From Ignavibacteriota bacterium (GTDB taxonomy: Bacteria; Bacteroidota; Ignavibacteria; UBA10030; UBA6906): DNA of 64,000 nt. Numbering within the stretch: position 1 is the stretch's first letter; each line of letters starts with the position of its first letter. The notes beneath the pieces are model-generated. The model saw only the letters and a program-made list of their open reading frames with translations. It was not told the origin of the DNA and did not search any database. The position numbers and the translations under genes are program-made. This document shows, piece by piece, positions 4,583 to 56,453 of this stretch. The stretch covers positions 2,432,001 to 2,496,000 of the forward strand of contig CAWDEM010000008.1 of NCBI GenBank assembly GCA_963801355.1. Reading direction: 5' to 3'.

Positions 4583-4712
4583 ACGGGCGATAGGCACGAG
4601 GCGATCGGCAGGAGCCGATAGGCACGAGGTGATGGGCACGAGGCAATAGGGAGGAGACGCTTCCCTCCTATTGCCCAACGCCTGGTGCCTCGTGCCGTCG
4701 CTTGTTGTCTAC
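4583..4712. repeat. Degenerate heptamer-repeat palindrome between convergent genes (copy 1)
   Basis: taggcac gaggcga tcggcag gagccga taggcac gaggtga tgggcac gaggcaa tagggag, then inverted units ctattgcc...ctcgtgcc. Confidence 0.8.
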
Positions 4713-4720
4713 GGCCTCAA

Positions 4721-7450
4721 CTACTTCAACAACAGCAACTTCTTGCTTTCCGTAAAACTCCCCGCTCCGCTCTTGGAGTCACGCCCGACGGCGGAGTCCA
4801 GAGGGCGGACTTGCAGCCGGTAGAAGTACGTGCCGGTTGCCATGCCCAACGCATTCCACTCCACCTGGTATCTCCCCGCCACGACATCTTCATTCATGAG
4901 CTCGGTTACCTGCCGGCCCAGCAGATCATAGACCGTCAGGGAAACTCTGCTTCTCTCAGGAATCGAGAATCTAATTGTTGTGGACGGATTGAACGGATTC
5001 GGATAGTTCTGCAGCAATTCATAGCGCGACGCCACGCCTTCAGCCGATTCGACAGAAGATACTCCGGAGCCACTCGTCACGATCGCGCGGATCCGGAGAT
5101 TGTTCGGCGTAATTGCCACCCACGCCGACCCGTCATACAGAAAGCTCCGGTTTGAAGCAACTGTTCCCGCATCCTGGCGCACCCTCACCGTATCTCCGGT
5201 TCCCGGGATGGACGCGACTATGAAGTAGTCGGTCCCCGACGTCACCGGAACATTGGCACTCATAAGCTGCGTGTAGTTGTACGTTTCACGGCAGAGCATA
5301 CCCAAAGGAACCAGCACGCTGTTCCCGATCTTCGTCCCCGGCATGCCGCCGCTGTTAGTATAGATCTCGTACTGCATGTTGCCTGTGCCAACGATCCCGT
5401 CGCTGTTCCGCGTCACATTCATCTGGACACCTGTCAGCCTACCGTTGACATCCGGTGTGAACCTCACGGCATACTTGGTGGAACCGGCGAGCGTCCGGGT
5501 TTGACTTGTACCGGCAACGTCGTAGGCGAAGGTTTTTCGCACGACGGTGGCGGCACCGTTGTAACTCTTCGCCACCGCCTCAACAATGTCCAGCTTTCCA
5601 TAACCCCACGTGTAGTTCGGGAGGCCGGATGCAAACGCATCACCGTTCGCGGTTGATGTGATCAGAGTCTTGATTTGCGCCGCAGTCAGCGATGGCTTTG
5701 CCCCCAGCAGCAACGCACAGGCACCGGTCACATGTGGGGCTGACATGCTTGTGCCCGACAGGATCTGGTGTTTCTGCCCGGGGTGGATAACACTGGCCGC
5801 GCCTGTCGTGTCCACGAAACTCGAGAGGGCAGACGAAATCCCCTGCCCGGGGGCGGCAATATCCGGTTTGAGCCGGCCATCTCTGGTGGGCCCGATAGAG
5901 CTCCATGCCGAGATGTTCCCGGTTCGGTCAGTGCCAGCATAAAAATAGGTCTGCCCTGTGTAGACCGGCCAGCCCCACTTCGTCGCATAAGCACCTACGG
6001 TAATCGCCCCATCAGATGTGCCGGGCATATCGAGGGTCTTGTCATATCCTCCGCCCGTCAATGTGACGGAAGCGTTTCCCACGGTCTTTGTAACCAGCCA
6101 GGCGTCATAGGTCACCTGCCCGCCGCTTGTATTTGTGATGGCCAGCGTCCACGTACCGGTCTTGGGCACATTCGTGGTTGCGTCATGTACCCAGAGGTAG
6201 ACTTCCCGATCGGAATTCAAGCTGCTTGTGATATTCTGGAGCGTGATGGTCCCATCGGTGTTGACCGGACCGTCACCGAACTCTCCGGCATTGCGCGTGT
6301 ATGTGATGCCTGTTGGTGACGTAACCATTGCCGAGACAGTCGGATTGCCCGAAAACCATGCTTCAAAAGAAAACGCGTCGTTGTCTGTGCTTGCAGTCGG
6401 TGTATATGTTGGCACCGTGAACGTAATCGTCGCCATCCCGGCGGCTGCAATTGTCCCCGCAATGTGCATCGGTTGGTCCCCTTTGTTGCCGGCAGAAACC
6501 ACAACAACGCGGCCGGGCGTACCGACAAATGTGTCCATCGCCACCTCGTACGCGCGGGTTCCGTCACGGGGTCCTGACTGTCCGCCGATGCTGTAGTTGA
6601 TCACAACAGGCTTGCCGAGAGCGACGGCCTTCGCCTGTGCATAGGTCAGTCCATCGATCATATTTGTCTCGGAGAAGGAGTTGTCCCCCCCTTTCACAAC
6701 GATAATATCTGCCATGGGGGCCATGCCGGCGTACTTGCCTCCAAAGGTGCCGCCATTGCCAGCGGCCGTTCCTGCCACGTGCGTGCCATGGCCATTCGTA
6801 TCTTTTTCACGCACGATGCCCGCCGGTGATCCGTCAATTTCGTTGTCAATCTGGGCCTTCGTGTATTCCACGCCGTACGCGAAACCGGAGGGTGAAGTCT
6901 CTCCCCCAGTGGGGGTCAACGTTTGATCCCAGATGAAAAGAATGCGGGTCTTCGTGCTGTCACCGGGCATGCAGAAATCCTTGTGCTTCCAGTCTATGCC
7001 GGTGTCAAAGACGACCACGATCGCACCCTGCCCCTTGTAGGGAGTTGAGTTGACCAAACCGCCATGGAGCAGGGATGCCCCGGTCTCGGGAATGCTGACA
7101 TCGTTTACCGGATAATTCACGCTGCCCGGATCCAGATAGTGCACTTCGGGCATACCGGCAAGCTGTTCGATGTCGCGGGGCGTGATCTGCGCTGTCACAA
7201 ATTTCGGAAAAGCGCTGTTCACATGAATACCGGCGGCACGTATGGCATCGGGGTTTGCCGTGTAGATGATGGCATCATAGGGACTGCCGACCCGGGAGGC
7301 ACCCTCCAGGTGCGGCTGGCCGGTGAGTGCTTGCTGGAAAAAAGGGTGGAGCTTTTGGGCGGCCGGTCCCCCCGGTGCACCCGCCAGGAGAATTGCCGCA
7401 CCGCAGGTGAGGAGAAACCCACCCACCAGCAACCGTCGCAAAGCGCTCAT
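4721..7450 (-). CDS. S8 (subtilisin-like) serine peptidase with signal peptide, propeptide, inserted beta domain and T9SS type A C-terminal sorting domain
   Basis: Catalytic motifs FDTGID, GHGTHVAG and SGTSMSAPHV; C-terminal QNYPNPFNP...VYDLLGR...GTYFY...KKLLLLK. Confidence 0.95.
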   Translation of the reverse strand: MSALRRLLVGGFLLTCGAAILLAGAPGGPAAQKLHPFFQQALTGQPHLEGASRVGSPYDAIIYTANPDAIRAAGIHVNSAFPKFVTAQITPRDIEQLAGMPEVHYLDPGSVNYPVNDVSIPETGASLLHGGLVNSTPYKGQGAIVVVFDTGIDWKHKDFCMPGDSTKTRILFIWDQTLTPTGGETSPSGFAYGVEYTKAQIDNEIDGSPAGIVREKDTNGHGTHVAGTAAGNGGTFGGKYAGMAPMADIIVVKGGDNSFSETNMIDGLTYAQAKAVALGKPVVINYSIGGQSGPRDGTRAYEVAMDTFVGTPGRVVVVSAGNKGDQPMHIAGTIAAAGMATITFTVPTYTPTASTDNDAFSFEAWFSGNPTVSAMVTSPTGITYTRNAGEFGDGPVNTDGTITLQNITSSLNSDREVYLWVHDATTNVPKTGTWTLAITNTSGGQVTYDAWLVTKTVGNASVTLTGGGYDKTLDMPGTSDGAITVGAYATKWGWPVYTGQTYFYAGTDRTGNISAWSSIGPTRDGRLKPDIAAPGQGISSALSSFVDTTGAASVIHPGQKHQILSGTSMSAPHVTGACALLLGAKPSLTAAQIKTLITSTANGDAFASGLPNYTWGYGKLDIVEAVAKSYNGAATVVRKTFAYDVAGTSQTRTLAGSTKYAVRFTPDVNGRLTGVQMNVTRNSDGIVGTGNMQYEIYTNSGGMPGTKIGNSVLVPLGMLCRETYNYTQLMSANVPVTSGTDYFIVASIPGTGDTVRVRQDAGTVASNRSFLYDGSAWVAITPNNLRIRAIVTSGSGVSSVESAEGVASRYELLQNYPNPFNPSTTIRFSIPERSRVSLTVYDLLGRQVTELMNEDVVAGRYQVEWNALGMATGTYFYRLQVRPLDSAVGRDSKSGAGSFTESKKLLLLK

Positions 7451-7482
7451 GTGTGTAGCCTTTCAGAATGTATGGGAAGATG

Positions 7483-7840
7483 TCATTTGTGAAGTTGATT
7501 CTTGCTGCCCTCATCTACGGAGCGGACTGAGGGAAGAGCGAGGAGCGCACGGAGCTGGTCTTTTGAAACGCGGGCTGTAATGACATCACCGAACGCGCTC
7601 TGCACTTTGACCCCTTGAGCCCGGATTTCATCGGGACTGTCCGAGCGGATGATCACGCCATATTCCTTTGTCCCGTCAGCTCCCACCGTGACGTCATACA
7701 ATGCGTCGGGCACTGACTGTTCGGTCAACAGTGCCAGAAGACCGGGTGTGAGTTTTGCCTTTCTCTGCAGAACTCAATTCACGGGATCCGCAGCAGGAGG
7801 TGGCAAACACCAGGAGAAGAATTGCGGGATATCGCAGCAT
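7483..7840 (-). pseudogene. Lipoprotein consisting of a stand-alone S8 propeptide-like domain (putative inhibitor/chaperone), apparent +1 frameshift at about 7760-7762
   Basis: GGAGG RBS then ATG 7840 encodes MLRYPAILLLVFATSC (lipobox-like). Removing one A from GAGAAAGGCAAAA joins it to ORF 7483..7728, giving 118 aa that align with the neighbouring protease propeptide. Confidence 0.75.
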
Positions 7841-7909
7841 GTGGCCCTCCGGAAGAAGTTCGTGGTCATAGAATACTGAATCCTTCTGCCAGACACAAGG
7901 TCCCGGGGA

Positions 7910-38684: not shown

Positions 38685-39815
38685 TCATCCGAGAATCGCC
38701 AGCAACACACCCGCCGCGATAGCCGTACCGATGACGCCCGCCACATTGGGTCCCATGGCATGCATCAGAAGGTAGTTCTGGGGGTTGTACTCCTGCCCGA
38801 TGTTGTGCGAGACACGGGCCGCCATCGGAACGGCAGAGACACCGGCCGACCCGATCAGCGGATTGACTTTTCCACCCGTGAGGCGGTACATCACTTTGCC
38901 GAGGAGCACCCCGCCGACAGTGGAGAACCCGAAAGCAATCACGCCCAGTACGATGATCTTCATCGTCTCCCAGCGCAGGAATACGTCCGCCCCCATGGTC
39001 ATCCCCACACACGTGCCGAGAAAGAACGTTACGATATTGATGAGCTCGTTCTGGGCCATATTGGTGAGACGCTCGACCACACCGCTTTCACGGAGGAGGT
39101 TCCCCCCCATAAGCATAGCCAGCAGCGGCGCAGCAGGAGGGACGACGAACACACCCACGACGGTGACTGCAAGGGGGAAGATGATCTTCACCTTGTGGGA
39201 CACCGGCTTCGGTATCTCCATGACAACGGTGCGTTCCTTTTCGGTTGTGAGCAACCGCATGATGGGCGGTTGAATGAGCGGGACAAGGGCCATATAGGAG
39301 TAGGCGGCCACAGCGATGGGTCCGAGGAGGTGCGGCGCGAGTTTGAGCGTCAGGTAGATGGCCGTCGGTCCGTCGGCGCCGCCGATAATGCCGATCGCCG
39401 CCGCTTCTTTGAACGTGAAGCCGAGAGCGACCGCGGACATGAGCGCAACGAACACGCCAAACTGGGCGGCCGCGCCCAGCAAAAACGTTTTGGGATTCGA
39501 CAGGAGCGGTCCGAAATCGGTCATTGCCCCGATGCCAAGAAAGATCAGCGGCGGAAAAATCTCCAGCTCGATCCCTTTGGAGAGATAGTAGTACAATCCG
39601 CCGATTTCCGACCCGCTGGGCGGCGTCAACAGTCCGTTCCCCGGCAGGTTCGCCAGAAATGCTCCGAGCCCGATCGGCAGGAGCAGGAGCGGCTCAAACC
39701 CCCGGCGGATCGCCAGATAGATAAGCAGTGACGCAACGGTAAGCATCACCACGTTTCCCCAGGTGAGAGACCAGAACCCCATCCCCGCTACAAATTTTTG
39801 CAGATTCTCGATCAT
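38685..39815 (-). CDS. mmdB: Na+-translocating decarboxylase beta subunit
   Basis: [27 protein letters not shown] and HAMGPNVAG motifs. Confidence 0.93.
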
Positions 39816-39826
39816 GAGGGATCCGC

Positions 39827-40237
39827 CTATTCGAACGAGAGGAGTACTTGACCCGCCTCGATTTTGTCACCCGGTTTCACTTTGATGGCCTTGATCTTGC
39901 CGTTTTGCGGGGATGAAATATTCGTCTTCATCTTCATCGCCTCGAGGACAAACAGCACGTCATTCTGCTTGACCGTATCCCCTTCCTTGACCGGGATTTC
40001 CAGAACAACCCCATTGATCGGTGATGTCAGCGATTTCTTATCCGCACCCGATACTTTTCCTTTTGGAGAGGCAGTCGAAGGCATGGCCAGGGAAGCGGTT
40101 GGCGGAGTCACATAGCTGTCGACAACCCGTGGGGGGGGGTGGAACGCATGTTGTGGTTCCACTAGATCATCGTCCTGGACGACCTCCACATCGACTTCGT
40201 AGCGTTTGCCGTTGACGGTAATAAGCAGCTTTTTCAT
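39827..40237 (-). CDS. mmdC: Biotin carboxyl carrier (gamma) subunit
   Basis: [11 protein letters not shown]-terminus and EAMKM biotinylation motif. Confidence 0.9.
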
Positions 40238-40587
40238 AGTGGCGATTTCCTTCTTGAGATTGCATGAGAAGCCATGATGTTGAGCCGCCCGGTGACGGCC
40301 CATGCCGGTTCCGCCGAAGGTTCCAGGAAACGCACGCGGCGGATGGAGATCGGGCGCTTGAGCATGACGGTCGCTGATGCGGCAAGCACGGCGACGATTT
40401 CATCGTTTAGATCGACATCCACCTTGTGCGTGTCGACCTTCGTCGCGTAGTTCTTGATGCGCCGGGAATTCAGCCATTCATCGGCATTTTTTAAGAACCA
40501 GATGAGGCCGGCGAGTGCGCTGAGGACGACCAGGGTCACCGACATGCCGACAACCAGAAGGAGAAGGCTTTGCGTGAAGTTATCCAT
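40234..40587 (-). CDS. OadG/delta-type decarboxylase membrane anchor subunit
   Basis: GMSVTLVVL transmembrane segment, EIVAVLAA and WAVTGR motifs; operon position. Confidence 0.8.
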   Translation of the reverse strand: MDNFTQSLLLLVVGMSVTLVVLSALAGLIWFLKNADEWLNSRRIKNYATKVDTHKVDVDLNDEIVAVLAASATVMLKRPISIRRVRFLEPSAEPAWAVTGRLNIMASHAISRRKSPL

Positions 40588-40603
40588 GTTCCGGTCCCCG
40601 CTC

Positions 40604-42157
40604 TTAGAGCGGTATCAATCCATGTTTTTTCTGCGGACGCTGGTCGCGCTTGTTTCGCAACGATTCCAGGGCGACGGAAAGATAGGCCCGGGTCGCCTTC
40701 GGCTCGATGACGGCATCCACCATGCCGCGCTGCGCCGCCTGGTACGGTGTCGAGAATTCCTGCTTGTATCGGGCGATGAGACGCGCGCGGACCTCTTTGG
40801 GATCAGGGGCATTCTTGATATCGCTGCGGTACAGCACATTTACAGCGCCCTCGGCACCCATGACGGCAATTTCCGCGGTCGGCCATGCGGCAACGCGGTC
40901 CGCCCCCAGCGACTTGGCGCACATTGCCAGATAAGCTCCACCATAGGCCTTGCGGACAACCACCGTGATCTTCGGCACGGTGGAGGCGGAGAATGAAAAG
41001 AGCATCTTCGCGCCATGCCGGATGATCCCGCCGAACTCCTGTTCGACTCCCGGCAGAAATCCCGGGACATCCACGAACTGAATGAGCGGGACATTGAACG
41101 CATTGCAGAAGCGGATGAAGCGGGATGCTTTGTCGGAGGCGTCAATATCAATCGCACCAAATTTCGCTGCGGGCTGGTTCGCCACAACGCCCACCACCCT
41201 GCCGTTGAGCCGCGCAAAGCAGACAATGATGTTCATCGCATAGTGGCTGTGCACTTCGAACAGGGTATCGGGATCGAAAATCCTCTGCAGGATGTCAAAC
41301 ATATTGTACGGATCGCGCGGATCGTCCGGCACCACGGTGTTCAGAGCTTCATCTTCGATAATAGTCAACTCCCCCGTATGCTGTGAGGGGGGATCTTCGG
41401 TGTTGTTATTCGGGAGATAGCTGAGAAGCCGTTGTACGATCTCGATGGCGTCAGCATCATCACGGGCGATGAAATGGACGTTGCCGCTTTGTGCCGACTG
41501 GGCCTCCGCTCCGCCGAGTTCTTCCGCACTGATCGATTCCCCCGTGGCCTCCCGGATCACCTCCGGCCCCGCGATGAACAGCTGCCCGATCCCCTTGACC
41601 ATGACGATGAAATCCGTCAGGGCCGGGGAGTACGCCGCACCTCCCGCACACGGGCCGGCAATGATGGAGATCTGCGGGACGACACCGGAAAGCAGGGTGT
41701 TGTGATAGAAGATCCTGCCGTATCCCTGGAGTGAATCGACACCTTCCTGTATGCGCGCGCCGCCACTGTCATTGATCGCGATGTAGGGTGCACCCGCTTT
41801 CAGTGCCATTTCCATGATATCGCAGATTTTCCACGCGTGCATCAATCCCACGCTTCCACCCATGACGGTGAAATCCTGCGACGAGGCATAGACGAGCCGC
41901 CCCCCGATGGCCCCCAATCCCGTGACCACCCCGTCGGCCGGCAAATCGCGTCCCGCCATGCCGAATGATGTGGAATGATGCTGTACCAGCCGGAAGAGTT
42001 CGTCATAGAAGCCATGATCGAACAACAGGTGAAGGCGTTCATGAGCGGTCATCTTTCCCGCTTTGTGCTGGGCGTCAATCTTCTCCACACCCCCACCCAG
42101 AATCACCAACGCGTTCTTTTCCTTCAATTCCTGGAGTTTTTCCTGTACCGTAGCCAT
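40604..42157 (-). CDS. mmdA: Methylmalonyl-CoA decarboxylase alpha subunit (carboxyltransferase)
   Basis: DSGGARIQEG, GPCAGGA, DVPGFLPG, KAYGGA and KKHG motifs. Confidence 0.9.
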   Translation of the reverse strand: MATVQEKLQELKEKNALVILGGGVEKIDAQHKAGKMTAHERLHLLFDHGFYDELFRLVQHHSTSFGMAGRDLPADGVVTGLGAIGGRLVYASSQDFTVMGGSVGLMHAWKICDIMEMALKAGAPYIAINDSGGARIQEGVDSLQGYGRIFYHNTLLSGVVPQISIIAGPCAGGAAYSPALTDFIVMVKGIGQLFIAGPEVIREATGESISAEELGGAEAQSAQSGNVHFIARDDADAIEIVQRLLSYLPNNNTEDPPSQHTGELTIIEDEALNTVVPDDPRDPYNMFDILQRIFDPDTLFEVHSHYAMNIIVCFARLNGRVVGVVANQPAAKFGAIDIDASDKASRFIRFCNAFNVPLIQFVDVPGFLPGVEQEFGGIIRHGAKMLFSFSASTVPKITVVVRKAYGGAYLAMCAKSLGADRVAAWPTAEIAVMGAEGAVNVLYRSDIKNAPDPKEVRARLIARYKQEFSTPYQAAQRGMVDAVIEPKATRAYLSVALESLRNKRDQRPQKKHGLIPL

Positions 42158-42187
42158 GTGTTGAGTTCCTGTGGATGTGACGCCGCC

Positions 42188-42592
42188 TCACCGGGCGGCG
42201 CAGAGTTCAACCAGCACGCCGTTCGTTGACCTGGGGTGCAGGAAGGCAATCTGGAGCCCTTCAGCCCCCCCGCGCGGCCGGGGGTCAATGAGCTGCATAC
42301 CACCGTCCTGCAATTCCATCAAACTCCCGGGAAGGTCCGCAACGGAAAACGCAATGTGATGGATCCCCTCTCCCCTCTTCTCGATGAATTTCGCGATCGG
42401 ACTCCCGGGATCTGTCGGCTCGAGAAGTTCGATTTTCGTCTGACCGACTTTAAAAAAGGCCGTCTTCACTTTCTGGTCCGCTACCTCCTCCAGGGCATAC
42501 CATGATGTCCCGAGAAGCCGCTCGAAGACGGGCGCTGATTCCTGGATACTCTTGACCGCGATGCCGATGTGCTCAATATGCGTTGGGTTCAT
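42188..42592 (-). CDS. mce: Methylmalonyl-CoA epimerase
   Basis: IEHIGIAV, GEGIHHIAF and FLHP...GVLVEL motifs. Confidence 0.95.
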   Translation of the reverse strand: MNPTHIEHIGIAVKSIQESAPVFERLLGTSWYALEEVADQKVKTAFFKVGQTKIELLEPTDPGSPIAKFIEKRGEGIHHIAFSVADLPGSLMELQDGGMQLIDPRPRGGAEGLQIAFLHPRSTNGVLVELCAAR

Positions 42593-43605
42593 GAGGATGT
42601 CCGCTCCTGTCGTCGTTCAAAAGCTGCACAGAGGGTGTCCACTGCGCCGGCAACGGTCATTGATCCTGCCTGCACTGCTTGCTCGATGCCCGGGAGCAGC
42701 CGCTGGATCTCCGGGTCTGCGGCAAAGCGGGCGCGGAGACGATCATCAAGCATGCTGTGCATCCAATCCAGCATCTGGGCATGCCGCCGTCGCTGGAACA
42801 TGCCACCTTGCGACGTAACACTGCGAAACTCTTCGGCAGCCCTCCATACGGCGGCGATTCCGTCTCCCTCAAGTGCCGAACAGGTCATGACAGGAGTCGT
42901 CCACCCTTCCGTCGCAGGGACAAAATAATGGAGGGCGTGCGCGGTGTCCGCACGCAGGGCCTCGGCGCGCACGCGATTCTCTCCGTCGGCTTTGTTGATG
43001 ACCACGGCATCGGCCAGCTCCATGACACCCTTCTTGATCCCCTGGAGTTCATCGCCGGCACCCGTGATGAGCAGCAGAAGAAAGAAATCGACCATCGACC
43101 GCACGGCGATCTCGCTCTGACCGACGCCGATCGTCTCCACAAGGATCACGTCATAACCCGCGGCTTCGCACACAAGGATGGACTCGCGGGTTTTGCGCGT
43201 CACCCCGCCGAGGGTTCCCCCCGAGGGAGATGGGCGAATGAAGCACCCGGGGTCCCGCGCAAGCCGTTCCATGCGGGTCTTGTCTCCCAGAACGCTCCCC
43301 CGCGTGACACTGCTGCTGGGATCGACCGCCAGCACGGCAACCCGGTGGTTGGAGGCGGTGAGAAGACGCCCGAGAGCTTCGACAAATGTGCTCTTGCCTG
43401 CGCCCGGAACTCCGGTGATCCCCACGCGCAGGGAACCGCCGGTAACAGGAAGGAGCTGTGCGAGCACTTGTTGCGCAACGGCCGCGTGCGCGGGGGCATT
43501 GCTCTCTATGAGCGTAATCGTCCGTCCGAGAATGACGCGATCACCGGATCGCACGCCGGCGACGTACTCATCGACATTGAGTGCGCGACGCCCCTTCGAT
43601 TCCAC
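42589..43605 (-). CDS. meaB: Mutase-associated GTPase
   Basis: GVPGAGKST, DPSS, ETIGVGQSE and NKAD motifs. Confidence 0.95.
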   Translation of the reverse strand: MESKGRRALNVDEYVAGVRSGDRVILGRTITLIESNAPAHAAVAQQVLAQLLPVTGGSLRVGITGVPGAGKSTFVEALGRLLTASNHRVAVLAVDPSSSVTRGSVLGDKTRMERLARDPGCFIRPSPSGGTLGGVTRKTRESILVCEAAGYDVILVETIGVGQSEIAVRSMVDFFLLLLITGAGDELQGIKKGVMELADAVVINKADGENRVRAEALRADTAHALHYFVPATEGWTTPVMTCSALEGDGIAAVWRAAEEFRSVTSQGGMFQRRRHAQMLDWMHSMLDDRLRARFAADPEIQRLLPGIEQAVQAGSMTVAGAVDTLCAAFERRQERTSS

Positions 43606-43606
43606 G

Positions 43607-45784
43607 TCAGCCGATTCTCCGCATCAGTTCGTTCAGCATTGTGCCGGCAGCGACAGGGATCACCGTGCCGGGGCCGAAAATTGACGCTGCGCCGTGTGCG
43701 CGCAGAAAATCATAATCCTGGGCCGGGATCACACCCCCCACGACAACGAGAATATCCTCCCGTCCAAGCTTCTTCAGCTCCTCCACCAGCGCCGGCAACA
43801 GTGTTTTGTGACCGCCTGCAAGAGAACTCATGCCCACAATGTGCACATCGTTTTCGACCGCCTGACGGGCTGTCTCTTCGGGTGTCTGAAAGAGCGGTCC
43901 GACATCGACATCGAAACCCAGATCGGCGAATGCCGTGGCAATGACTTTGGCGCCGCGATCGTGACCGTCCTGTCCCATCTTCGCGACCAGGATCCGCGGG
44001 CGACGCCCCTCCATTCGTGCAAACTCGTCCGCCAGTGCCCGAACGTTGCTGACTTCATCTTTCACGGCGTACTCCCGGGAATAGACACCAGTGATCGTGC
44101 GCACAACCGCAGTATGACGGCCCCAGACCTTCTCCATAGCCTGGGAGATCTCGCCGAGGCTCGCCCGCGCCCGCGCAGCATCGATGGCCAGAGCGAGGAG
44201 ATTGCCTTCGCTGGACTCCGCGCTGTGGGTCAGCGCCCGGAGCGCCGCCTGCACCCGCGCCTCATCCCGGCCTGACCGGAGCTCAGCCAGTCGCGCTATC
44301 TGGGCGTCACGCACGGCACTGTTGTCGACTTCGAGAATCTCTATCGGATCCTCTTTCGCAAGCCGGTACGTATTGACGCCTACGACGGTTTCGCGGGCGG
44401 AATCGATATGCGCCTGCCGGCGCGCCGCGGCTTCTTCAATACGCATCTTGGGCAAACCCGTCTCGATGGCTTTGGCCATCCCCCCCAGACTTTCAATCTC
44501 CTGTATGTGCTCCCACGCGCGCCTCATCAACAGATCTGTCAATGCCTCCACATAGTATGAGCCGCCCCATGGGTCAATCACACGGCAAATCCCTGTTTCT
44601 TCCTGCAGGAACAGCTGCGTGTTGCGCGCGATGCGCGCCGAAAAATCCGTCGGCAACGCAATTGCCTCATCAAGCGAATTGGTGTGCAGCGACTGGGTGT
44701 GGCCGAGAGCAGCGGCCATAGCCTCAAGGCACGTCCGGTTGACATTGTTGAACGGATCCTGCTCGGTCAGGCTCCAGCCGGACGTCTGCGAATGCGTCCG
44801 CAACGCCATGGACTTCGGATCACGCGGGTTGAACTGTTTGATGAGCTTCGCCCAGATCAACCTCGCAGCGCGCATTTTGGCGATTTCCATGAAATAGTTC
44901 ATGCCGATCGCCCAGAAGAACGACACACGTGGCGCGAATGCATCGATGTCTATCCCCGCCTTCAACCCCGTGCGCACATACTCCAGACCGTCCGCCAGCG
45001 TATAGGCCATTTCCAGATCCGCCGTCGCACCCGCTTCCTGCATATGGTAGCCGGAAATGCTTATGCAGTTGAACTTCGGCATCCGTTGTGACGTGAACGC
45101 GAAAATATCGGCGATGATGCGCATCGAACCCGCAGGCGGATAGATGTACGTGTTGCGCACCATGTACTCTTTGAGAATGTCATTCTGAATCGTTCCGGCA
45201 AGGTGTTCGGGCGAGATGCCTTGTTCCTCGGCGGCGACAACGTAGAACGCCATGATCGGGAGCACCGCACCATTCATCGTCATGGAGACCGACATCTTGT
45301 CCAACGGTATCCCCTCAAACAAGATCTTCATGTCCAGGATCGAATCGACGGCAACACCGGCTTTGCCGACATCCCCGACAACCCGCGGATGATCTGAATC
45401 ATATCCACGATGCGTGGCAAGGTCGAACGCAATCGAGAGCCCCTTCTGACCGGCAGCCAGGTTGCGACGGTAAAAGGCATTGCTCTCTTCTGCGGTGGAG
45501 AACCCGGCGTACTGGCGGACCGTCCAGGGCTGCATGACGTACATCGTTGCATACGGACCGCGGAGGAAGGGCGGAATGCCCGCGGTGAAGCCAAGGTGTT
45601 CAAGGTGCATCAGATCGTCCGCCGTATACAGAGGCTTGACGGATATCTGTTCATTTGTCTTCCAGAGCAGGTCCCCGGACTTCATGCCCGTGTGTTGTGC
45701 CAGGGCCGCCTCCCAAGAGCCGACGGTGCCCTTCGCGGAAGGAGACAGAAGAGCGACCTGAGAGAAATCGGGCATCGGCTTCAT
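43607..45784 (-). CDS. scpA: Methylmalonyl-CoA mutase large (catalytic, B12-binding) subunit
   Basis: [17 protein letters not shown] and GQDGHDRG B12 motif. Confidence 0.97.
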
Positions 45785-47931
45785 GTGCGTACTCCCCTCT
45801 TTGCCAGGAGAGAGCGGAGCGTTTCCAGTACATTCGAACGCATATGAATAAACTCATCGACCCCCGCGGAGCGGAATGATTCCACGTGCTCCTGCGGATA
45901 GCCTGCCAGCACTATCGTCAGGTCCGTACGTTCCCGCCTGACTGCGGCGCAGAATGCCGGTACCAGGGCCGGATATGTATCGTCCGTCGAGCAGAGAGCA
46001 ACAATTCCGGCTCCGGACACGCAAGCCGCGTGAGCCGCTTCCTCCGGCGTGGCAAAGCCGTCGGGGGTGATCACTTCGCATCCGGCGACAGCGAAGTAGC
46101 CCGCGGCGAAATCAGCACGTGGTTTATGCTGTGCGATGGGCCCCATGGTCGCCAGAAAGACGCGCACCGGACTCCCGGTGTGATGTGCGTACGCAACCAT
46201 TGCGTCCCGTAAGGCTTCGAAGCCCGCCGCGCGCCGGGTCGGCACCAGAGGGATCACATCGACCGGCGAGGTCCTGGATGGCGACGGGATGGCGTGCATG
46301 AGTTCGCCCACCGTTGCCTCCCGGCACGCCGCATCGATCAGCGCCGACATGAGACCACCGGAACCTTCGCCCGCCCTCGCCGGGATGCGTGCAAGCGCTG
46401 CAGCACTGCCGGCACGATCACGGCGCATCCGGAACGCACGCACTTCGTCCACACGCTGCGCCTGGATCTCCGCGAGAGTTTCTTCCCGTGCCCCGAGAGG
46501 GTGTTCGCCCGGGTTGGCATACGCCGTGACACCGACAATCGTGTCCTTCCGGCGTGCAACACCCTCCGCGCGTTGCGCGGCAACCTTTTGCACCCGCCTC
46601 TGTATCTCTCCGTTTAGAATCGCCGGGCCGATCCCTCCGGAGGATTCGATTTCCTGAAACACCCGCCAGCTCTTTTGCGCGACCTCGTCCGTCAACGCCT
46701 CGACATACCACGACCCGCCTGCAGGATCAATGACCCTCGGAATATGAGCTTCCGACTGGATCACGATCTGAGTGTTCCGCGCAATCCGCCGCGAGAATTC
46801 GTCGGGGGGCCGGACGGCTTCGTCAAAGAAGCCGACATGCATGCTGTCACAACCGCCCACTCCGCCGGCAAGGGCTTCCGTTGTCGTGCGCAGCATATTG
46901 ACGTACGGGTCGACGGCGGTGACCTCATGGGACGATGTACGAACGTGCAATACCATCTTCTGTGCATCCTCGCTGCCGCCGAACGCATGCACGGCCGTTG
47001 CCCAGAGCACCCTCGCCGCCCTGAACTTCGCCACCTCCATGAAGAACTGCGTCCCGGAGCTGAGGGAGAACCAGACCTGCCGGGCGGCGTCATCCACAGC
47101 CATTCCCCGCCGTATCATCTCACGAACGTACTCAACACCGGATGCGAGGGCACACGCCAGCTCCAGAACAGCATCGGCACCGGCGTCATGGTACGCACGG
47201 GAACGGACGGCGATCGATCGCAGTTCGGGGGCATGCTCCGCCGCCCAGGACGCGGTGAGATGCATTCTGTCATACGCTGTTGCCAGGCCGAACGGCAAAC
47301 TTCCGTTCACAAGCAGAAGACTCAAAGGATCGGTTCCGATGGCTCCCCGGAGTCTGTCGGTCGACATCCCCGATTGCTCCGCCAGCGCCACAAACATGGC
47401 CAGGACCGCGGGCAACCCCAGATCTGCCTCAAGGTGCACCGGGACTCCGGCGATGTCGACTCCGGACAAAACGGTCTGCAGATCCGAAAGTGAAGTGATC
47501 GAGAGGCCCTCGAGGCCCACCGATGATTGAACGGCGGCGTCGGCATCAATGCCGAGCCGGGTCGCCCGGTCCAGAGGGAGATATACCGCAGTCTGGCCCC
47601 TCTCAATGTCGCTCCGCAGGGCCGCGTTTGCATCAGTTGCTTTGCAGTAGGGGATCTCCTGGGCAACCAGCCAGGGGTGAACCACACACCCCGCAGTCTC
47701 TGTTCCCCGGCGAAACGGGGGAAGCCCCGGGAAATCAAGAGCACCCGCCGAATTGCTGCCACCCGCAGTATAGATAGGTTGGAGATCAATGCCTTCGTAC
47801 GTGTGCGTCAGCATTTTCTTCTCAAACGGGACCCCTTTGAGGAGCTTTTCGGTGGCGGCTTTCCATTGTTCGGTGGTGGCGGGAGAAAACTCACTGAAGA
47901 CGAGCTTCTGAGATGGCGAATCCGGTAGCAT
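45781..47931 (-). CDS. mutA: Methylmalonyl-CoA mutase small (non-catalytic) subunit
   Basis: Mutase-family motifs ([22 protein letters not shown]) without DxHxxG; start at 47931 or 47949. Confidence 0.9.
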
Positions 47932-48047
47932 TACTGTAGTATTCCTCATCCACGAGACAGAGATCAAGGGGTCCGACACGGAGGGACATGCGGAGGGACG
48001 CCCGAACGACCCCGTCAATATAGGGAAATATTAGGAAAGAGTGAAGC

Positions 48048-49302: not shown

Positions 49303-49616
49303 CACCCGCTCCTTCTCCGGATGACCAGACGCACGGCTTCATACGTGAAGACCGACACAAACGCTATCACCACGAAGAACAACCACTCCTCCAGCGGCAT
49401 GCCCAGGAGCCGGAACCCCAGGACAAACGACGGATTGAATGACCAGTGACCGCGCGACGTCACCAGGACATCCCACGTCCAATACACCACGCAGACGATC
49501 GCAATGGCCCGCAGCAAAGCGCCCGGATGTTTGTACATCCGGAGGGGCAACACTACGCTCAGGATCAGGGGGAAGACAAGGATGGCTGCCAGGACGAGAA
49601 GATATTCGGTGTTCAT
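49302..49616 (-). CDS. Lycopene cyclase domain protein (CrtYc-like half)
   Basis: WD...GHWSFN and MPLEEWLFF motifs. Confidence 0.85.
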   Translation of the reverse strand: MNTEYLLVLAAILVFPLILSVVLPLRMYKHPGALLRAIAIVCVVYWTWDVLVTSRGHWSFNPSFVLGFRLLGMPLEEWLFFVVIAFVSVFTYEAVRLVIRRRSG

Positions 49617-50173
49617 TGCCGGCCGCCCTGTACCGATAGGACATCCGGAGAAGCTTCGAGCTCTGTGGTGACGCTGACCGCAAACGTACGCAGCATATCC
49701 TGGAGGTCATCACGCATGCGGTCGCTGATGAAACCCTCACCCAGTACCGGCGCAAACATGTGGATATCAGCGCCGTTCTCGCGCTCAAGCCGCACGCGAA
49801 GACGGACCTTGAGCAATGTGCGGCGCTCTTCAACGGGAGTCGTCTCAAACCGGAACGACATCCAGTTCGGGGCGGTGACTTCCGGCGTCGCATAGGTCAG
49901 GGCATGGTGTCTGCTGCGTGCCAGCAAGAAATCGGTTCTCACAGGCTCCGCAAACGGCATCCGGCGCTCGGTCCTGTACACCCATTGCTCGTCGCCCGCT
50001 GCGGTAATCGCAACGACTCCCGGCATCGTGCGCCGCAACAGGTGTATGTCATTCAGCGTGCTTCTGATAGACGCTTCGGATTGCCGGACCGGAAATTCCG
50101 CTTCCGCAGTCGCGTCGACAATGAATGAATTTCCGAGTACGAGCGTCAGGACTGCAAGGAGAAGGGCGCTCAT
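49613..50173 (-). CDS. Hypothetical protein with N-terminal hydrophobic segment, probable SRPBCC/START-like fold
   Basis: Overlaps both neighbours by 4 nt (translational coupling); LNDIHLLRRTMPGV resembles CoxG/SRPBCC N-terminal helices; long C-terminal helix. Confidence 0.6.
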   Translation of the reverse strand: MSALLLAVLTLVLGNSFIVDATAEAEFPVRQSEASIRSTLNDIHLLRRTMPGVVAITAAGDEQWVYRTERRMPFAEPVRTDFLLARSRHHALTYATPEVTAPNWMSFRFETTPVEERRTLLKVRLRVRLERENGADIHMFAPVLGEGFISDRMRDDLQDMLRTFAVSVTTELEASPDVLSVQGGRQ

Positions 50174-50637
50174 GGGTTCGACCCGCGGCCGGCATTCACA
50201 TCACTCCCCGGATCCCTGACATCCTTTGCGCGGAAGAGCAGAAGCCCGTACGGTTCGCCGCCGAAGGCGTGATGAACCATGTGCGCCTTTTTCAGGCGGC
50301 GCATGTAGGGGTTCCTGAACACCACTCCCGGGACGCGTCGGTGGACATAGATGTCATGGAGGAAAAAGTAGACCATCCCGTACAGCGTTACGCCGAGAGC
50401 CAGGGCGAGGATGTCGCTGCGCAACGGGTCGCCCACCGCATACCAGATGACGACAATACTGATCGAAGCGAAGAAGAGCGGAAACACGTCGTTCCATTCA
50501 AATACCCCCTTGCGCGGCGTGTGATGGCTCTCGTGAAAAACCCAGAGGAGCTTGTGATAGACGAACCGGTGTGCGAGGTACGAGACAAACTCCATGGTAA
50601 TAAACGCTGCGATGAAGAACAGGGCAAATCGGAGCAT
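50170..50637 (-). CDS. crtZ: Beta-carotene hydroxylase
   Basis: His boxes HRFVYH, HESHH, FEWND, HDIYVHRR and HMVHH. Confidence 0.92.
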   Translation of the reverse strand: MLRFALFFIAAFITMEFVSYLAHRFVYHKLLWVFHESHHTPRKGVFEWNDVFPLFFASISIVVIWYAVGDPLRSDILALALGVTLYGMVYFFLHDIYVHRRVPGVVFRNPYMRRLKKAHMVHHAFGGEPYGLLLFRAKDVRDPGSDVNAGRGSNP

Positions 50638-50645
50638 AGGTCTTC

Positions 50646-52076
50646 CTATCGTTGTGACGTGCCGGAATACAGAGCATGTGTCACCAGACGTTCCTCCGCA
50701 TGCTCCACGATCTTCTTTGGGTACTGCCTGCCGAGCAGGCACCCGGAGCTTTCCTGATCCTGCTGCGACATGCGCCACGGTTCATGGATAAACTGAGCGG
50801 GCACGCGTGCCAGCTCCGGGACATACCGTCGTACATACGCCCCTTCGGGGTCGAACTTCTTTCCCTGGAGTACGGGATTAAAAATGCGAAACCACGGCGA
50901 CGCATCGGTGCCCGTGCCGGCCGTCCACTGCCAGCCGCCGTTATTTGACGCCAGATCCAGATCTATCAGTGTTTCTGCAAAGTACCGCTCCCCCCACTGC
51001 CAGTTCAGGTGCAGATCCTTCGTCAGAAATGACGCCACTATCATCCGCGCGCGATTATGCATCCACCCTTCTCCGTCCAGCTGCCGCATCGCCGCATCGA
51101 CGATAGGGTAGCCGGTGGTTCCTGACTTCCAGCGGGCAAATGCCGATGTAGACCGCTGCCAGGAAATGTCCCGGAACTCTTCCCGGAACGCCGTGTCCAG
51201 CACGAACGGAAAGGCCGAGAGAATCTGGTAGTAGAATTCACGCCATATCAACTCCGACACAAAGGTCTCGATGCCGGCACGCGCTCCGCCCCGTTTTTTG
51301 TGGAAGAGTTCTTGTGCCGCCCAGTAGACGCGGCGGGGCGAAATGCTGCCGAGCGACAGGTGATGGGAAAGCCTGGATGTCCCGTCGACAGCGGGAAGAT
51401 CGCGCCGCCGGTCATACGTGTCAACCGGCCCCCGGAGGAAGCGTTCCAGGCGGAGCAAGGGGGAGAAGTCGTCCCTGTCCGTCAGCGGCCGATCGAAACC
51501 CGGGATCCGCTGCAACGGTATTGATCCGGAGGCCATCGGGACTGTCGCCAGCATCCTACTATCGGGAAACGGCCTGGGGAGATCCGCGGCGGCTTCCAGC
51601 CATCGGCGCTTGTACGGCGTGAACACGCGGTACGGTCCGCCACTGTCTGTGCGTATTTCATCTGCTTCCCGGAGCACGCGATCCTTCACCAGGATCAGCT
51701 GTTTGCCGCTCCGGCGCAACGCCGTGGCAATACGTGCATCGCGGCGCCTTGCCGGCTCATCATAAAGGCGCACGGCGTACACCACGTCCGCATTGTACCC
51801 GATCGCGGCCGCCGGAAGTTCAATCTCCGGCGACCCGATACGGACATGCAATCGTGAGCCCCGCGCTCGAAGTCCGGCATCAAGATCAGCGATTGCCCGT
51901 CGCACGAACCGGCGGCGTCGCGTGTCCACAGCGTATGAGGCATCCTCACTCAGTACGAGGACCGGTACAACCTCGTCGGCCTCCAGCAGAGCGTGCCAGA
52001 GCGCGGCATTATCGTCCACGCGGAGCGCCCGGCGCAGCCAGAGAAGAGCCCGCCGGTATTTCGTGGCAGCCGGCAC
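50646..52076 (-). CDS. phrB: Deoxyribodipyrimidine photolyase
   Basis: LRVDDNAAL, TSRLS, ELIWREFY, GWMHNRARMIVASFL and NNGGWQW motifs. Confidence 0.95.
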   Translation of the reverse strand: MPAATKYRRALLWLRRALRVDDNAALWHALLEADEVVPVLVLSEDASYAVDTRRRRFVRRAIADLDAGLRARGSRLHVRIGSPEIELPAAAIGYNADVVYAVRLYDEPARRRDARIATALRRSGKQLILVKDRVLREADEIRTDSGGPYRVFTPYKRRWLEAAADLPRPFPDSRMLATVPMASGSIPLQRIPGFDRPLTDRDDFSPLLRLERFLRGPVDTYDRRRDLPAVDGTSRLSHHLSLGSISPRRVYWAAQELFHKKRGGARAGIETFVSELIWREFYYQILSAFPFVLDTAFREEFRDISWQRSTSAFARWKSGTTGYPIVDAAMRQLDGEGWMHNRARMIVASFLTKDLHLNWQWGERYFAETLIDLDLASNNGGWQWTAGTGTDASPWFRIFNPVLQGKKFDPEGAYVRRYVPELARVPAQFIHEPWRMSQQDQESSGCLLGRQYPKKIVEHAEERLVTHALYSGTSQR

Positions 52077-52081
52077 CGTCG

Positions 52082-53002
52082 CTATCCCTGGCGCGCAAGA
52101 AGAAGGTGTGCGAGATCCCGGAGACGGTCGCTGGCAACTGACGCAGGCACCGCATCAAGGGCCGTGAGCGCTTCGGTGGTGTGATCCGCCACCACCCCCC
52201 ACGTTGCTGTGAACTGGTTGGAGGATTCACGGGCCAGGGTGAGATAGGTCTGCCTGCCATTCTGCGCATCCATCCCGACGGATTTACCTGTTCCGGATTC
52301 GTCTCCTGTGGCGTCCAGAAGGTCGTCCATCGCCTGGTATGCGAGCCCGAGGTGGAATCCGAAATTCCCCAGCGCGTCGACGACGCGCCGGTCGTCCGTC
52401 GCAACCAGGGCTCCGATGCGCGTGCAGGCCTCAACCAATCGGGCGGTTTTCCGTTCCACCATCCACCGGTGATGCAACGGGTCATGTGAGGCCCCTTCCG
52501 GGTTCGCGAACCGGATGTCTGCACACTGTCCCTCGCACAGCTGAAGAAAGCAGGTGGAAAACGTGGAGAGTATCTCCGCTGTGGATCCGGCCTTCGTCAT
52601 CTGTAACGTCCGATACGCAAGGGCGATGAGCGCGTCACCCACGAGAATCGCCATCGGCATCCCGTGCATCACGTGCACCGCCGGCATGCCGCGTCGCAGC
52701 AGGGCGTTGTCCATGATGTCGTCGTGCACCAGGGATGATGCATGAAGCAACTCCAGCGCGGCCGCGGCAGGCAGGGCATTTTCTTCGCGGCCGCCAGCCG
52801 CGGCGCACGCCAGGATTGTCAGCAGCGGACGGATCCGTTTGCCGCCTGCAGTCGACTGCTCAATGATTTCACGGAGCGCCGGGGCTTCGATCTGTTCTAT
52901 CGCTCCACCAATGGTCCGGTCAACGCGGTGCCGGAGATGCTCGTCCCATCGCACGCTGTGGACAGGGGTGTTCATCGTGATGGTCATTGTGTATCGTGTC
53001 AT
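52082..53002 (-). CDS. crtE: Polyprenyl (GGPP) synthase
   Basis: GGKRIRP, HDDIMD...RRG and DDLLD motifs; crt context. Confidence 0.85.
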   Translation of the reverse strand: MTRYTMTITMNTPVHSVRWDEHLRHRVDRTIGGAIEQIEAPALREIIEQSTAGGKRIRPLLTILACAAAGGREENALPAAAALELLHASSLVHDDIMDNALLRRGMPAVHVMHGMPMAILVGDALIALAYRTLQMTKAGSTAEILSTFSTCFLQLCEGQCADIRFANPEGASHDPLHHRWMVERKTARLVEACTRIGALVATDDRRVVDALGNFGFHLGLAYQAMDDLLDATGDESGTGKSVGMDAQNGRQTYLTLARESSNQFTATWGVVADHTTEALTALDAVPASVASDRLRDLAHLLLARQG

Positions 53003-53958
53003 AGTGTGAGTACTGAAGCAGAAAAAGACTGAAGACGCCGGCCGGTCTCAGACCGCACCGCCTCCCGTCGTGCCCGATCCAGCAGGAAGTACGGCACGCC
53101 CTCCCGGCGCACGGTGATCAAGGCGGCCAGAAGAAGTTTTGACGGAAGCGGAACGTGCGCCCTTCGCTCGAACACCTGGTAGTCATTTGCTTCGATGGCG
53201 CGAAGGATGCGGCTGTAGAGATCGCTCATCAGCCTGACGCAGTACCGCGAGCCATCATCGGGCAGCAACGCGATTCCCCGGTTTGCCTTCGCGTAAAAAT
53301 CGCGGGCCCGGGAGATCTGGAACCGCATGAAGTCACGGAACGCTGAAGTCACCCGGCGGCCGCGAAGATCGTCCTCCGTGACCCCCCACTCATCCATTTC
53401 GCAGGACGGGAGGTAGATCCGGTGCATACGGAGATCTTCACCGACGTCGCGCAGGATATTCGTGAGCTGCATGGCCGTCCCCAGATCCTCGGCATACGGC
53501 AGCGCATCATCGCTGTCAGGTTGCAGGATCTTGGTCATCATAAGCCCGACCACGGACGCCACATGATAACAATAGGTCCTCAGATCTTCGAACGTCCGCG
53601 GGCGCATTCCTGCAATATCCATCGCCACGCCATCGATCAGGTCGAGGAGATATTCTTTCGGAATACCGAACGTGTGCACAGTTTCCTGCAGAACCGGCAG
53701 AGGTGTTGTCCCGTGATCACCGGCGAAGACTTCCTCCACCCGGCGCCGCATCAGCTGCAGACGGACGGAAGAGGAGGAGGGGTCTGCGGTTTCATCGGCG
53801 ATGTTGTCCACCAGCCTGCAGAAGGAGTACAGTGCATAGGCCGCCTTCCGCTTTCCCGGGGGCAAGGCAAAAGACGCAAAATAGAATGTCCTTGCGTAGC
53901 GGCGCGTTATTGCGCGGGCATCCTCCTGGGTCGTCACAGGATTTTCCTCAACCCTCAT
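52999..53958 (-). CDS. crtB: Phytoene synthase
   Basis: FCRLVDNIAD, YCYHVASVVG and QLTNILRDVGED motifs. Confidence 0.95.
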   Translation of the reverse strand: MRVEENPVTTQEDARAITRRYARTFYFASFALPPGKRKAAYALYSFCRLVDNIADETADPSSSSVRLQLMRRRVEEVFAGDHGTTPLPVLQETVHTFGIPKEYLLDLIDGVAMDIAGMRPRTFEDLRTYCYHVASVVGLMMTKILQPDSDDALPYAEDLGTAMQLTNILRDVGEDLRMHRIYLPSCEMDEWGVTEDDLRGRRVTSAFRDFMRFQISRARDFYAKANRGIALLPDDGSRYCVRLMSDLYSRILRAIEANDYQVFERRAHVPLPSKLLLAALITVRREGVPYFLLDRARREAVRSETGRRLQSFSASVLTL

Positions 53959-54851: not shown

Positions 54852-54873
54852 GGGCTACACCATTAGTGGTACA

Positions 54874-56358: not shown

Positions 56359-56453
56359 CTCATCCGATTAATGCGATTTGTTCGTTTCAATACACAGATT
56401 AACACAAGACCCTGGATTATGGTTCCCACCACAATCAAATCGGACAGAAAAAG

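Follow-up and report, generated by a model that had tools for sequence, protein, structure and literature searches.

The DNA considered here is a window of 64,000 nucleotides from the genome of an Ignavibacteriota bacterium (GCA_963801355.1, contig CAWDEM010000008.1, positions 2,432,001 to 2,496,000 of the forward strand), and positions below are counted from the first letter of that window. Near its start lie, on the minus strand, a gene for a subtilase of family S8 with a C-terminal domain for the type IX secretion system (T9SS) and, directly upstream of it, a small gene whose product resembles the prodomain of that same protease. A first-pass annotation of the sequence had proposed that the small gene is a duplicated propeptide with a lipoprotein-type signal, possibly an inhibitor of the protease next to it, and this pair of genes and its relatives in other genomes are the subject of the present analysis. 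The features of the locus are as follows.

4721..7450, minus: S8 subtilase gene, 909 aa plus stop, from its open reading frame (ORF) and from Pfam and NCBIfam matches
4724..5005, minus: T9SS type A C-terminal sorting domain, protease residues 816-909 (PF18962 at 816-880; TIGR04183)
7103..7369, minus: built-in (cis) prodomain of the protease, residues ~28-116, placed by aligning the small-protein and protease profiles with hhalign
7451..7482, minus: 32-nt spacer between the small-gene stop and the protease ATG (7450), with a GAAAGG Shine-Dalgarno-like element, from DNA alignment
7483..7773, minus: small-gene body, a 96-codon open frame plus stop (7483-7485), 91% identical to the intact orthologue of the congener G002, profile match 2.3e-43
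7758..7759, minus: GG where relatives have one G, a one-base insertion that breaks the small-gene frame, from DNA alignment with four congeners (G001-G004)
7760..7840, minus: small-gene 5' piece in another frame, with its ATG at 7840, signal peptide MLRYPAILLLVFATS and then Cys16/Cys17 (7790-7795), from the sequence and the conservation of Cys
7845..7850, minus: GGAGGG Shine-Dalgarno-like element, 4 bases (7841-7844) from the small-gene ATG, where the congeners have GGAGGG or GGAAGG

The same-strand spacing of 32 nt and the small gene's own ribosome-binding site, both pointed out in the first-pass annotation, hold at these positions, and the GAAAGG element of the spacer is conserved among the congeners in the DNA alignment. 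A scan for sigma-70-like promoters and for terminators, with Bacteroidota-type promoters outside its range, detected no promoter of that kind, nor any terminator separating the small gene from the protease gene.

The protease is built of a signal peptide, the prodomain, a Csp-like catalytic domain with a large insert, a further domain and the T9SS C-terminal sorting domain, in that order. Its earlier description as a T9SS-secreted S8 protease agrees with the Pfam matches to Peptidase_S8 (PF00082, 159 bits, 1.7e-46) and Por_Secre_tail (29.5 bits, 9.5e-7) and with the NCBIfam match to TIGR04183 (31 bits, cut-off 23). CspBA and CspC, which are clostridial germination subtilases, are its best NCBIfam matches, far below their cut-offs, and the nearest solved chains by sequence are also clostridial Csp germination subtilases (E 2.4e-33 over residues 138-622, including the large insert). 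The catalytic triad of D149 (DTG), H221 (HGTH) and S568 (GTSMS) is invariant in 40 of 40 aligned relatives. As the PorU sortase (980 bits, cut-off 420) and SprA (847 bits, cut-off 200) of the T9SS machinery are encoded in the same genome, the protease may fairly be taken to be exported through the type IX system.

The small protein and the prodomain of its neighbour

The 96-aa frame of the small gene (7486-7773) aligns by BLASTP with the 909-aa protease without a gap, residues 38-92 lying on 58-112, with 22 of 55 positions identical and 32 of 55 positive; the E value of 3e-11 is that of a single comparison, small frame against protease. This is the same alignment that the first-pass annotation had counted by hand. 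The motif it had noted further upstream, which is KLxPxxxxxLTxQ, is also present in both proteins, as KLTPGLLALLTEQ in the small protein and KLHPFFQQALTGQ in the protease. A comparison of the small-family profile with the protease-family profile by hhalign extends the homology into that region, reaching a probability of 99.6% with an E value of 3.7e-24 over 103 columns and protease residues 21-117, and covers the whole mature small protein from a shared LxxxExxKL(D/H)PxxQxxL helix to its end. Within the whole 4.8-Mb genome the small protein matches only its own locus and the protease, even at E <= 10.

The propeptide-like domain of the small protein runs from KAKLTPG onward and ends with GSKNQLHK. 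Across the family the tail that follows a conserved Gly is 7-8 residues long in 98 of 162 small proteins and 7-10 residues long in 130 of 162, with GSKNYPQ, GSKNYLH and GSKNQLHK as typical tails. The equivalent junction in 40 proteases reads DPGSxNYPx(N/L), followed by a nearly invariant D117-x-S-x-P-E-x-G-A that opens the catalytic domain, and a count of 7-8 residues from G109 of the protease reaches V115/N116, immediately before D117. The length of the tail therefore matches the junction, with the free copies ending almost exactly where the catalytic domain starts. Judged from these alignments, the end of the small protein would fall almost exactly at the site where the C-terminus of the autoprocessed propeptide would sit; the earlier suggestion that the small protein stops at about the point of propeptide cleavage is thus borne out by the tail lengths, the protease junction and hhalign alike.

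AlphaFold 2, given 25 sequences, was used to predict the fold for P0004, an orthologue of 118 aa that is intact and has 91% identity to the body in the window. The model has a pLDDT of 80.6, rising to ~90 over its core, and forms an alpha/beta sandwich of four helices and five strands (among them strand 58-66, helix 69-74, strands 78-83 and 86-91, helix 93-100 and strand 105-110). Subtilase propeptides fill 8 of the first 10 Foldseek rows (3afg, 8c4x_B, 4i0w_A, 3whi, 3cnq_P, 2z58_B, 1r6v), the top propeptides being those of Tk-SP (ProN), PAM protease, CspB, pro-subtilisin E, subtilisin BPN', Tk-subtilisin and fervidolysin, with E values from 3.6e-3 upward. In VIA-align, rows 1-14 are all pro-forms or propeptides of subtilases (Z 7.8-5.8, rmsd 1.6-2.9), and the CspB prodomain chain 4i0w_A is matched with Z 5.1 over 82 residues. 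The small protein is accordingly modelled as having the subtilase-propeptide fold, an assignment that draws on these Z values, which are middling on the scale given by VIA-align itself, together with the direct homology to the prodomain.

The small protein also has an export signal of its own. The N-terminus of its relatives is basic and hydrophobic and leads into a Cys that is invariant in 25 of 25, and across 138 full N-termini a Cys occupies the aligned lipobox position in 134. The lipobox region of the copy in the window reads LVFATSCC. A relaxed lipobox after an uncharged run is present in 96 of the 138 N-termini, and the classic pattern [LVI][ASTVI][GAS]C in 37, so that lipidation is only probable. 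Of the lipoprotein-type signal claimed earlier, the Cys is well conserved, and the small protein is probably lipid-anchored. Three distant members of the family (P0155, P0168, P0182) have a signal peptide without a Cys and may be soluble secreted versions. In surface lipoproteins of Bacteroidota, acidic residues stand just behind the Cys. The residues right after the Cys of the small proteins are mostly Gly, Ser or Ala with no acidic stretch seen there, which by that rule gives a weak hint that the protein would face the periplasm rather than the cell surface.

Distribution, descent and the broken copy in this genome

It is apparent that the small gene travels with protease genes well beyond this genome. 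Orthologues of 114-150 aa that are intact adjoin S8/T9SS protease genes in at least 31 genomes, several families being represented. Within a set of 41 related genomes, which includes G000, 14 have a match at E <= 0.01 and 12 of these carry the small ORF, which measures 124-180 codons from stop to stop and is in two pieces in G000 and G004; each of the 12 lies directly upstream of a long ORF that has an N-terminus matching the same profile or S8 motifs. A scan of species-representative genomes found 11 loci, from metagenome-assembled genomes labelled Ignavibacteriae, Ignavibacteriota or Bacteroidota, and the downstream ORF matches in 11 of 11.

The phylum was also sampled evenly with 401 genomes, of which 29 have matches, and 21 of these 29 have the small gene, always beside an S8 gene. 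The 21 comprise 13 clear pairs, 5 genomes where a weaker small ORF immediately precedes the protease gene and 3 in which the small gene has a different S8/T9SS protease gene for a neighbour and in two cases follows it. Three large families in the sample gave no match at all (0/87, 0/61 and 0/28 genomes). The usual position of the small gene is 5' of the protease gene, the downstream position being found in G364 and G134. Small genes of G364, G134 and G380, which lie at a distance from the protease that matches best, were considered as orphans and rejected as such, each standing beside another S8/T9SS protease gene, and loss of the cis prodomain from these divergent partners was rejected as well, their N-termini still being prodomain-like. 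In some genomes a single small gene is accompanied by a tandem pair of S8/T9SS proteases of the family, the loci noted for this and for the downstream arrangement being L027 (4269-8333) and L062 (5358-10001).

A profile search of 1.84 billion representative proteins returned 280 clusters at E <= 1e-3 and 121 at E <= 1e-10, and of the 149 hits retrieved from those listed, 144 are no longer than 200 aa. Among the members tested no small protein has a significant match in Pfam or NCBIfam. Inhibitor_I9 (PF05922) matches neither the copy in the window nor P0004 at E <= 1, nor any of 45 scanned members, and CspB_prodomain (PF18425) matches 4 of the 45, with a best E of 0.097 that is far below significance. 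Where the sources name the members of the family, they do so as 'hypothetical protein', and the ESM Atlas gives unnamed clusters together with leads, scoring below 0.9 and to be read as leads only, to clusters of CspB_prodomain and Inhibitor_I9. The first-pass annotation had allowed for the case that no intact homologues would lie near S8 genes; a search for homologues and their gene neighbours found intact ones, with the lipobox-type Cys, beside S8/T9SS genes at every locus examined.

The descent of the free copies was followed by maximum likelihood in a tree that took in 19 of them together with 25 cis prodomains and left out the truncated copy of the window and seven long-branch rows. The free copies are split from the cis prodomains with a support of 99/96, and there is a single such split in 100% of 200 bootstrap trees; in a quick tree that kept the long rows 5 changes are needed, all of which involve those rows. 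As the free copies form one clade apart from the cis prodomains, the tree indicates that the free copy arose once, not repeatedly, and has travelled with the protease gene since. Three pairwise comparisons give the small gene a dN/dS of 0.14, 0.10 and 0.06, against 0.13 for the protease, which points clearly to purifying selection on the small gene.

It might be argued that the small ORFs are no more than a functionless, decaying partial tandem duplication of the 5' end of the protease gene. The ORF is indeed frameshifted in this genome, the congener G004 has another one-base insertion, and the family databases give these proteins no name. Decay of the whole family is nevertheless very improbable, given 280 representative clusters, intact copies in no fewer than 29 further genomes belonging to several families, a single clade of free copies that do not group with the prodomains of their neighbours, dN/dS values of 0.06-0.14, and the retention of an own signal peptide with its conserved Cys and of a tail of conserved length. 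At the level of the family the idea of a functionless remnant is thus contradicted by the comparative data. The earlier claim of a duplicated propeptide is strengthened by the single clade, the purifying selection, the predicted propeptide fold and the homology over the mature length.

The copy in this genome is a different matter. In the assembly the small gene is split, as the first-pass annotation implied by calling its protein frame-corrected, and the signal-peptide piece, an ORF that spans 7694-7840 and begins MLRYPAILLLVFATSCCGS, and the body are in different frames. The DNA alignment with the four congeners puts the whole break down to the extra G at 7758/7759. The only in-frame start for the body is a TTG at 7728, which would yield a product without a signal peptide, and so the small protein of this genome, as assembled, would not be exported. 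The congener G004 has its own one-base insertion in the small gene (L009/L016; G004:C10, ~90856-91132) next to an open protease frame of 916 codons, and broken copies thus occur in 2 of the 5 genomes of the genus.

Whether the strain has really lost the exported small protein in recent times whilst keeping the protease is a question on which the evidence divides. The extra base lies outside any long homopolymer (G to GG after AAA), and none of the 58 other ORFs scanned in the window has a split domain, its large genes having full-length Pfam coverage, which argues for a low rate of indel errors; the disruption in G004 is moreover independent. Against a real mutation, the body has a dN/dS of 0.14 relative to G002, the same as the protease, and any inactivation must therefore be very recent. 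Both broken copies also come from the most contiguous pair of assemblies in the genus (8 and 10 contigs), and the copies in its three fragmented assemblies are intact, which fits long-read indel error. A contig of the sequencing run X20, 95-99% alike but from a different strain, is also without the base at 7758. No sequencing run among those searched for the source strain contained half or more of the sampled words, the best share being 0.27, and the contigs compared with the locus, coming from related strains only, give no decision between assembly error and real mutation. A true recent loss seems slightly the weaker case, and an assembly error and a pseudogene of very recent date are, at roughly even odds, the two descriptions that suit the small gene of this genome. 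A programmed frameshift was also considered, as a +1 slip at AAA-G would formally bridge the break, and a conserved recoding site was rejected because the extra G is missing from all four congeners and from the contig that is 95-99% alike.

Proposed function and comparable systems

The reading that we favour, with a probability of about 0.6, is that the small protein is a tethered propeptide-like inhibitor of the adjacent Csp-like S8 subtilase and an ancient stand-alone paralogue of its prodomain. Subtilase propeptides fold the catalytic domain. Once cleaved off they stay bound to it and inhibit it tightly, their C-terminal tail lying in the active-site groove and two surface helices being capped by acidic residues; free-standing mimics of the propeptide fold also inhibit subtilases (PMC6993865). 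An intact small gene would give a protein of ~100 mature residues that is exported by Sec and probably lipid-anchored. The free copy would bind the folded catalytic domain as the autoprocessed prodomain does, with its sheet against the pair of surface helices and the free tail at its C-terminus placed in the substrate cleft in the manner of a product. As the small protein ends at the junction there would be no scissile bond there, and the tethered copy may act as a stable, product-like and cognate inhibitor bound to the envelope. In this way it would neutralise any protease that had lost its own prodomain and become active before its release, whether in the periplasm or on the cell surface.

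A number of observations weigh against this proposal. For one thing, the protease retains a built-in prodomain that is already an inhibitor in cis. For another, 8 of the 29 genomes with matches in the phylum sample have a protease carrying this prodomain but no small gene detected next to it, so the partner is not obligatory, and the two independent frameshifts, here and in G004, suggest that its loss may be tolerated. In the structural comparisons the best scores, a Foldseek E of 3.6e-3 and a Z of 7.8, are middling, no Pfam match to I9 or CspB_prodomain reaches significance, with no family at all for the copy in the window, and only 37 of the 138 N-termini have the classic lipobox pattern.

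It is also conceivable that the tethered copy is a foldase or escort acting in trans, that is, a membrane-bound folding catalyst, or a holdase that keeps the protease competent for T9SS export, instead of an inhibitor. Lipase-specific foldases provide a parallel for such a role, and a membrane tether and the operon layout would suit a periplasmic assembly factor. Besides inhibiting, subtilase propeptides serve as folding chaperones (PMC6993865), and in Aeromonas a separate chaperone gene adjoins the subtilase gene (PMC5638518); the chaperone of Aeromonas sobria, ORF2 (chain 3wqb_B), is itself among the structural matches of the small protein (Foldseek rank 19, VIA Z 4.4). This match is weaker than those to true propeptides, though, and the Aeromonas protease is 'propeptide-deficient' by a title cited in that source (PMC5638518). 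Here a full prodomain is kept by the protease and by all 25 cis sequences of the tree, and the N-terminal segment is still prodomain-like in the divergent partners of the G364, G134 and G380 small genes. Since the partners keep their prodomains a second chaperone seems redundant, and a role as foldase or escort is considered rather unlikely.

Inhibition by a tethered prodomain copy would set the small protein among several known systems, none of which it copies in full. Its fold and topology are predicted to be those of the built-in propeptides of subtilases (MEROPS I9/PF05922; PF18425), and its best matches in structure are the prodomains of Tk-SP (ProN), subtilisin BPN'/E, Tk-subtilisin, PCSK9 and CspB. 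It differs from them in being encoded by a separate gene, outside the zymogen, with its own signal peptide and lipobox-type Cys, and in an N-terminal helical extension (LxxxExxKLDPxLxxLL) that it has in common only with the prodomain of this protease family. Spi, the inhibitor of streptococcal SpeB, is likewise a free-standing homologue of the propeptide of a protease and is encoded beside the protease gene. It differs in that the protease is of the C10 cysteine class, with another fold, and in that Spi is not known to be a lipoprotein or to be linked to the T9SS.

Stand-alone propeptide-like inhibitors of subtilases have been described from eukaryotes, namely POIA1 of Pleurotus, the yeast proteinase B inhibitor, SPI-1 of Arabidopsis, MIC5 of Toxoplasma and SUB1-ProM of Plasmodium (PMC6993865). 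Like the small protein these are small independent products that mimic the propeptide fold, SUB1-ProM also being encoded beside subtilase genes (PMC6993865), and POIA1 (1v5i_B) lies on the small-protein model with Z 5.0 and an rmsd of 2.2 over 59 residues. According to the same source, the eukaryotic inhibitors have no significant sequence similarity to propeptides and may have arisen by convergence (PMC6993865). The small protein, in contrast, is bacterial, probably lipid-anchored, homologous to the prodomain of its neighbour and paired with a T9SS cargo.

In gene arrangement the nearest parallel is with the potempins PotA-E of Tannerella forsythia, whose partners are the KLIKK peptidases, among them the S8 subtilase mirolase, the partner of PotC (PMC9890683). 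Potempins are lipoproteins of 98-132 residues encoded immediately upstream of T9SS-secreted peptidases and co-transcribed with them, and it has been shown experimentally that they inhibit their genetic partner, sit on the surface of the outer membrane and protect surface proteins (PMC9890683). The gene order, with the T9SS protease downstream on the same strand after a 32-nt spacer, the size of the small protein and its Cys at the lipobox position are alike. Potempins, however, are five-stranded OB or eight-stranded up-and-down beta-barrels that send a loop into the cleft (PMC9890683), whereas the small protein is predicted to have an alpha/beta fold of the propeptide kind that stems from the enzyme. 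The comparison with potempins made in the first-pass annotation therefore stands for the gene layout and the probable lipoprotein nature and fails for the fold. ORF2 of Aeromonas sobria is similar in being a separate small protein encoded beside the gene of a subtilase, which it binds (PMC5638518). Going by titles cited there, the ORF2 gene lies 3' of the protease gene and ORF2 replaces a missing propeptide, whereas the small gene is usually 5' and the protease here keeps its full prodomain.

In the full-text literature searched, with subscription journals largely outside it, no bacterial lipoprotein copy of a subtilase prodomain was found described; free propeptide-like inhibitors were found there only from eukaryotes, and pairs of a lipoprotein and a T9SS protease only as potempins. 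On the whole of the analysis the new family is well supported, and the function proposed for it is a plausible candidate. The locus brings together two ideas, the propeptide-like inhibitors of fungi, plants and apicomplexans and the upstream T9SS lipoprotein inhibitors of one oral pathogen, and does so in environmental bacteria. The family that it defines is a sizeable one, with its 280 representative clusters nameless in Pfam and NCBIfam among the members tested.

The chances are about evenly balanced that these are the first prokaryotic stand-alone inhibitors of subtilases to be derived from a propeptide, lipid-anchored 'self-antidotes' that were born once, when the prodomain of the enzyme was duplicated, have stayed next to it and would guard the envelope from a Csp-like protease exported by the T9SS. 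They would then be an independent invention of what Tannerella does with the unrelated potempins. In a bolder version, the tethered copy would swap with the built-in prodomain, hold the mature enzyme at the membrane and time its release. If inhibition is true, a bacterial branch would be added to the propeptide-like inhibitors, and the pair would be a direct example of a cognate inhibitor that arose from the prodomain of the enzyme itself, with the homology still visible. It would equally serve as a testable model for the way in which T9SS bacteria prevent damage by proteases that fold in the periplasm ahead of export. A concrete prediction of the proposal at the level of structure is the C-terminal tail, constrained in length and uncleavable.

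Other features of the window

The gap between the protease gene and a convergent DNA-glycosylase gene (4586-4696) contains ~5 head-to-tail copies of a 14-nt unit (GGCGATAGGCACGAGG-like) and a 16-nt inverted repeat that is 88% complementary. The exact 13-mer has only 4 occurrences genome-wide, 2 of them in this gap.

Further along, on the minus strand at 49305-56367, are genes for a lycopene cyclase domain, a photolyase, a polyprenyl synthetase, a phytoene synthase and an oxidase like phytoene desaturase, and within this carotenoid-type cluster a regulator with a helix-turn-helix and a B12-binding domain is encoded at 53958-54854. The cluster resembles one for light-regulated, CarH/LitR-type carotenoid synthesis.

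The genes at 38688-48030 encode the two subunits of a methylmalonyl-CoA mutase, a glyoxalase-fold protein, a carboxyltransferase, a biotin carrier and the beta subunit of a Na+-pumping decarboxylase. Pfam gives the glyoxalase-fold protein as Glyoxalase only, and its reading as the epimerase is our own. Together these genes suggest a succinate/propionate pathway with a sodium pump. Nearer the start of the window, at 763-2454, is a gene for a protein with four stretches of bacterial TSP3 (thrombospondin type 3) repeats and a C-terminal OmpA domain, which is adjoined by genes for MscL and for an outer-membrane-type protein of DUF3078/DUF481.

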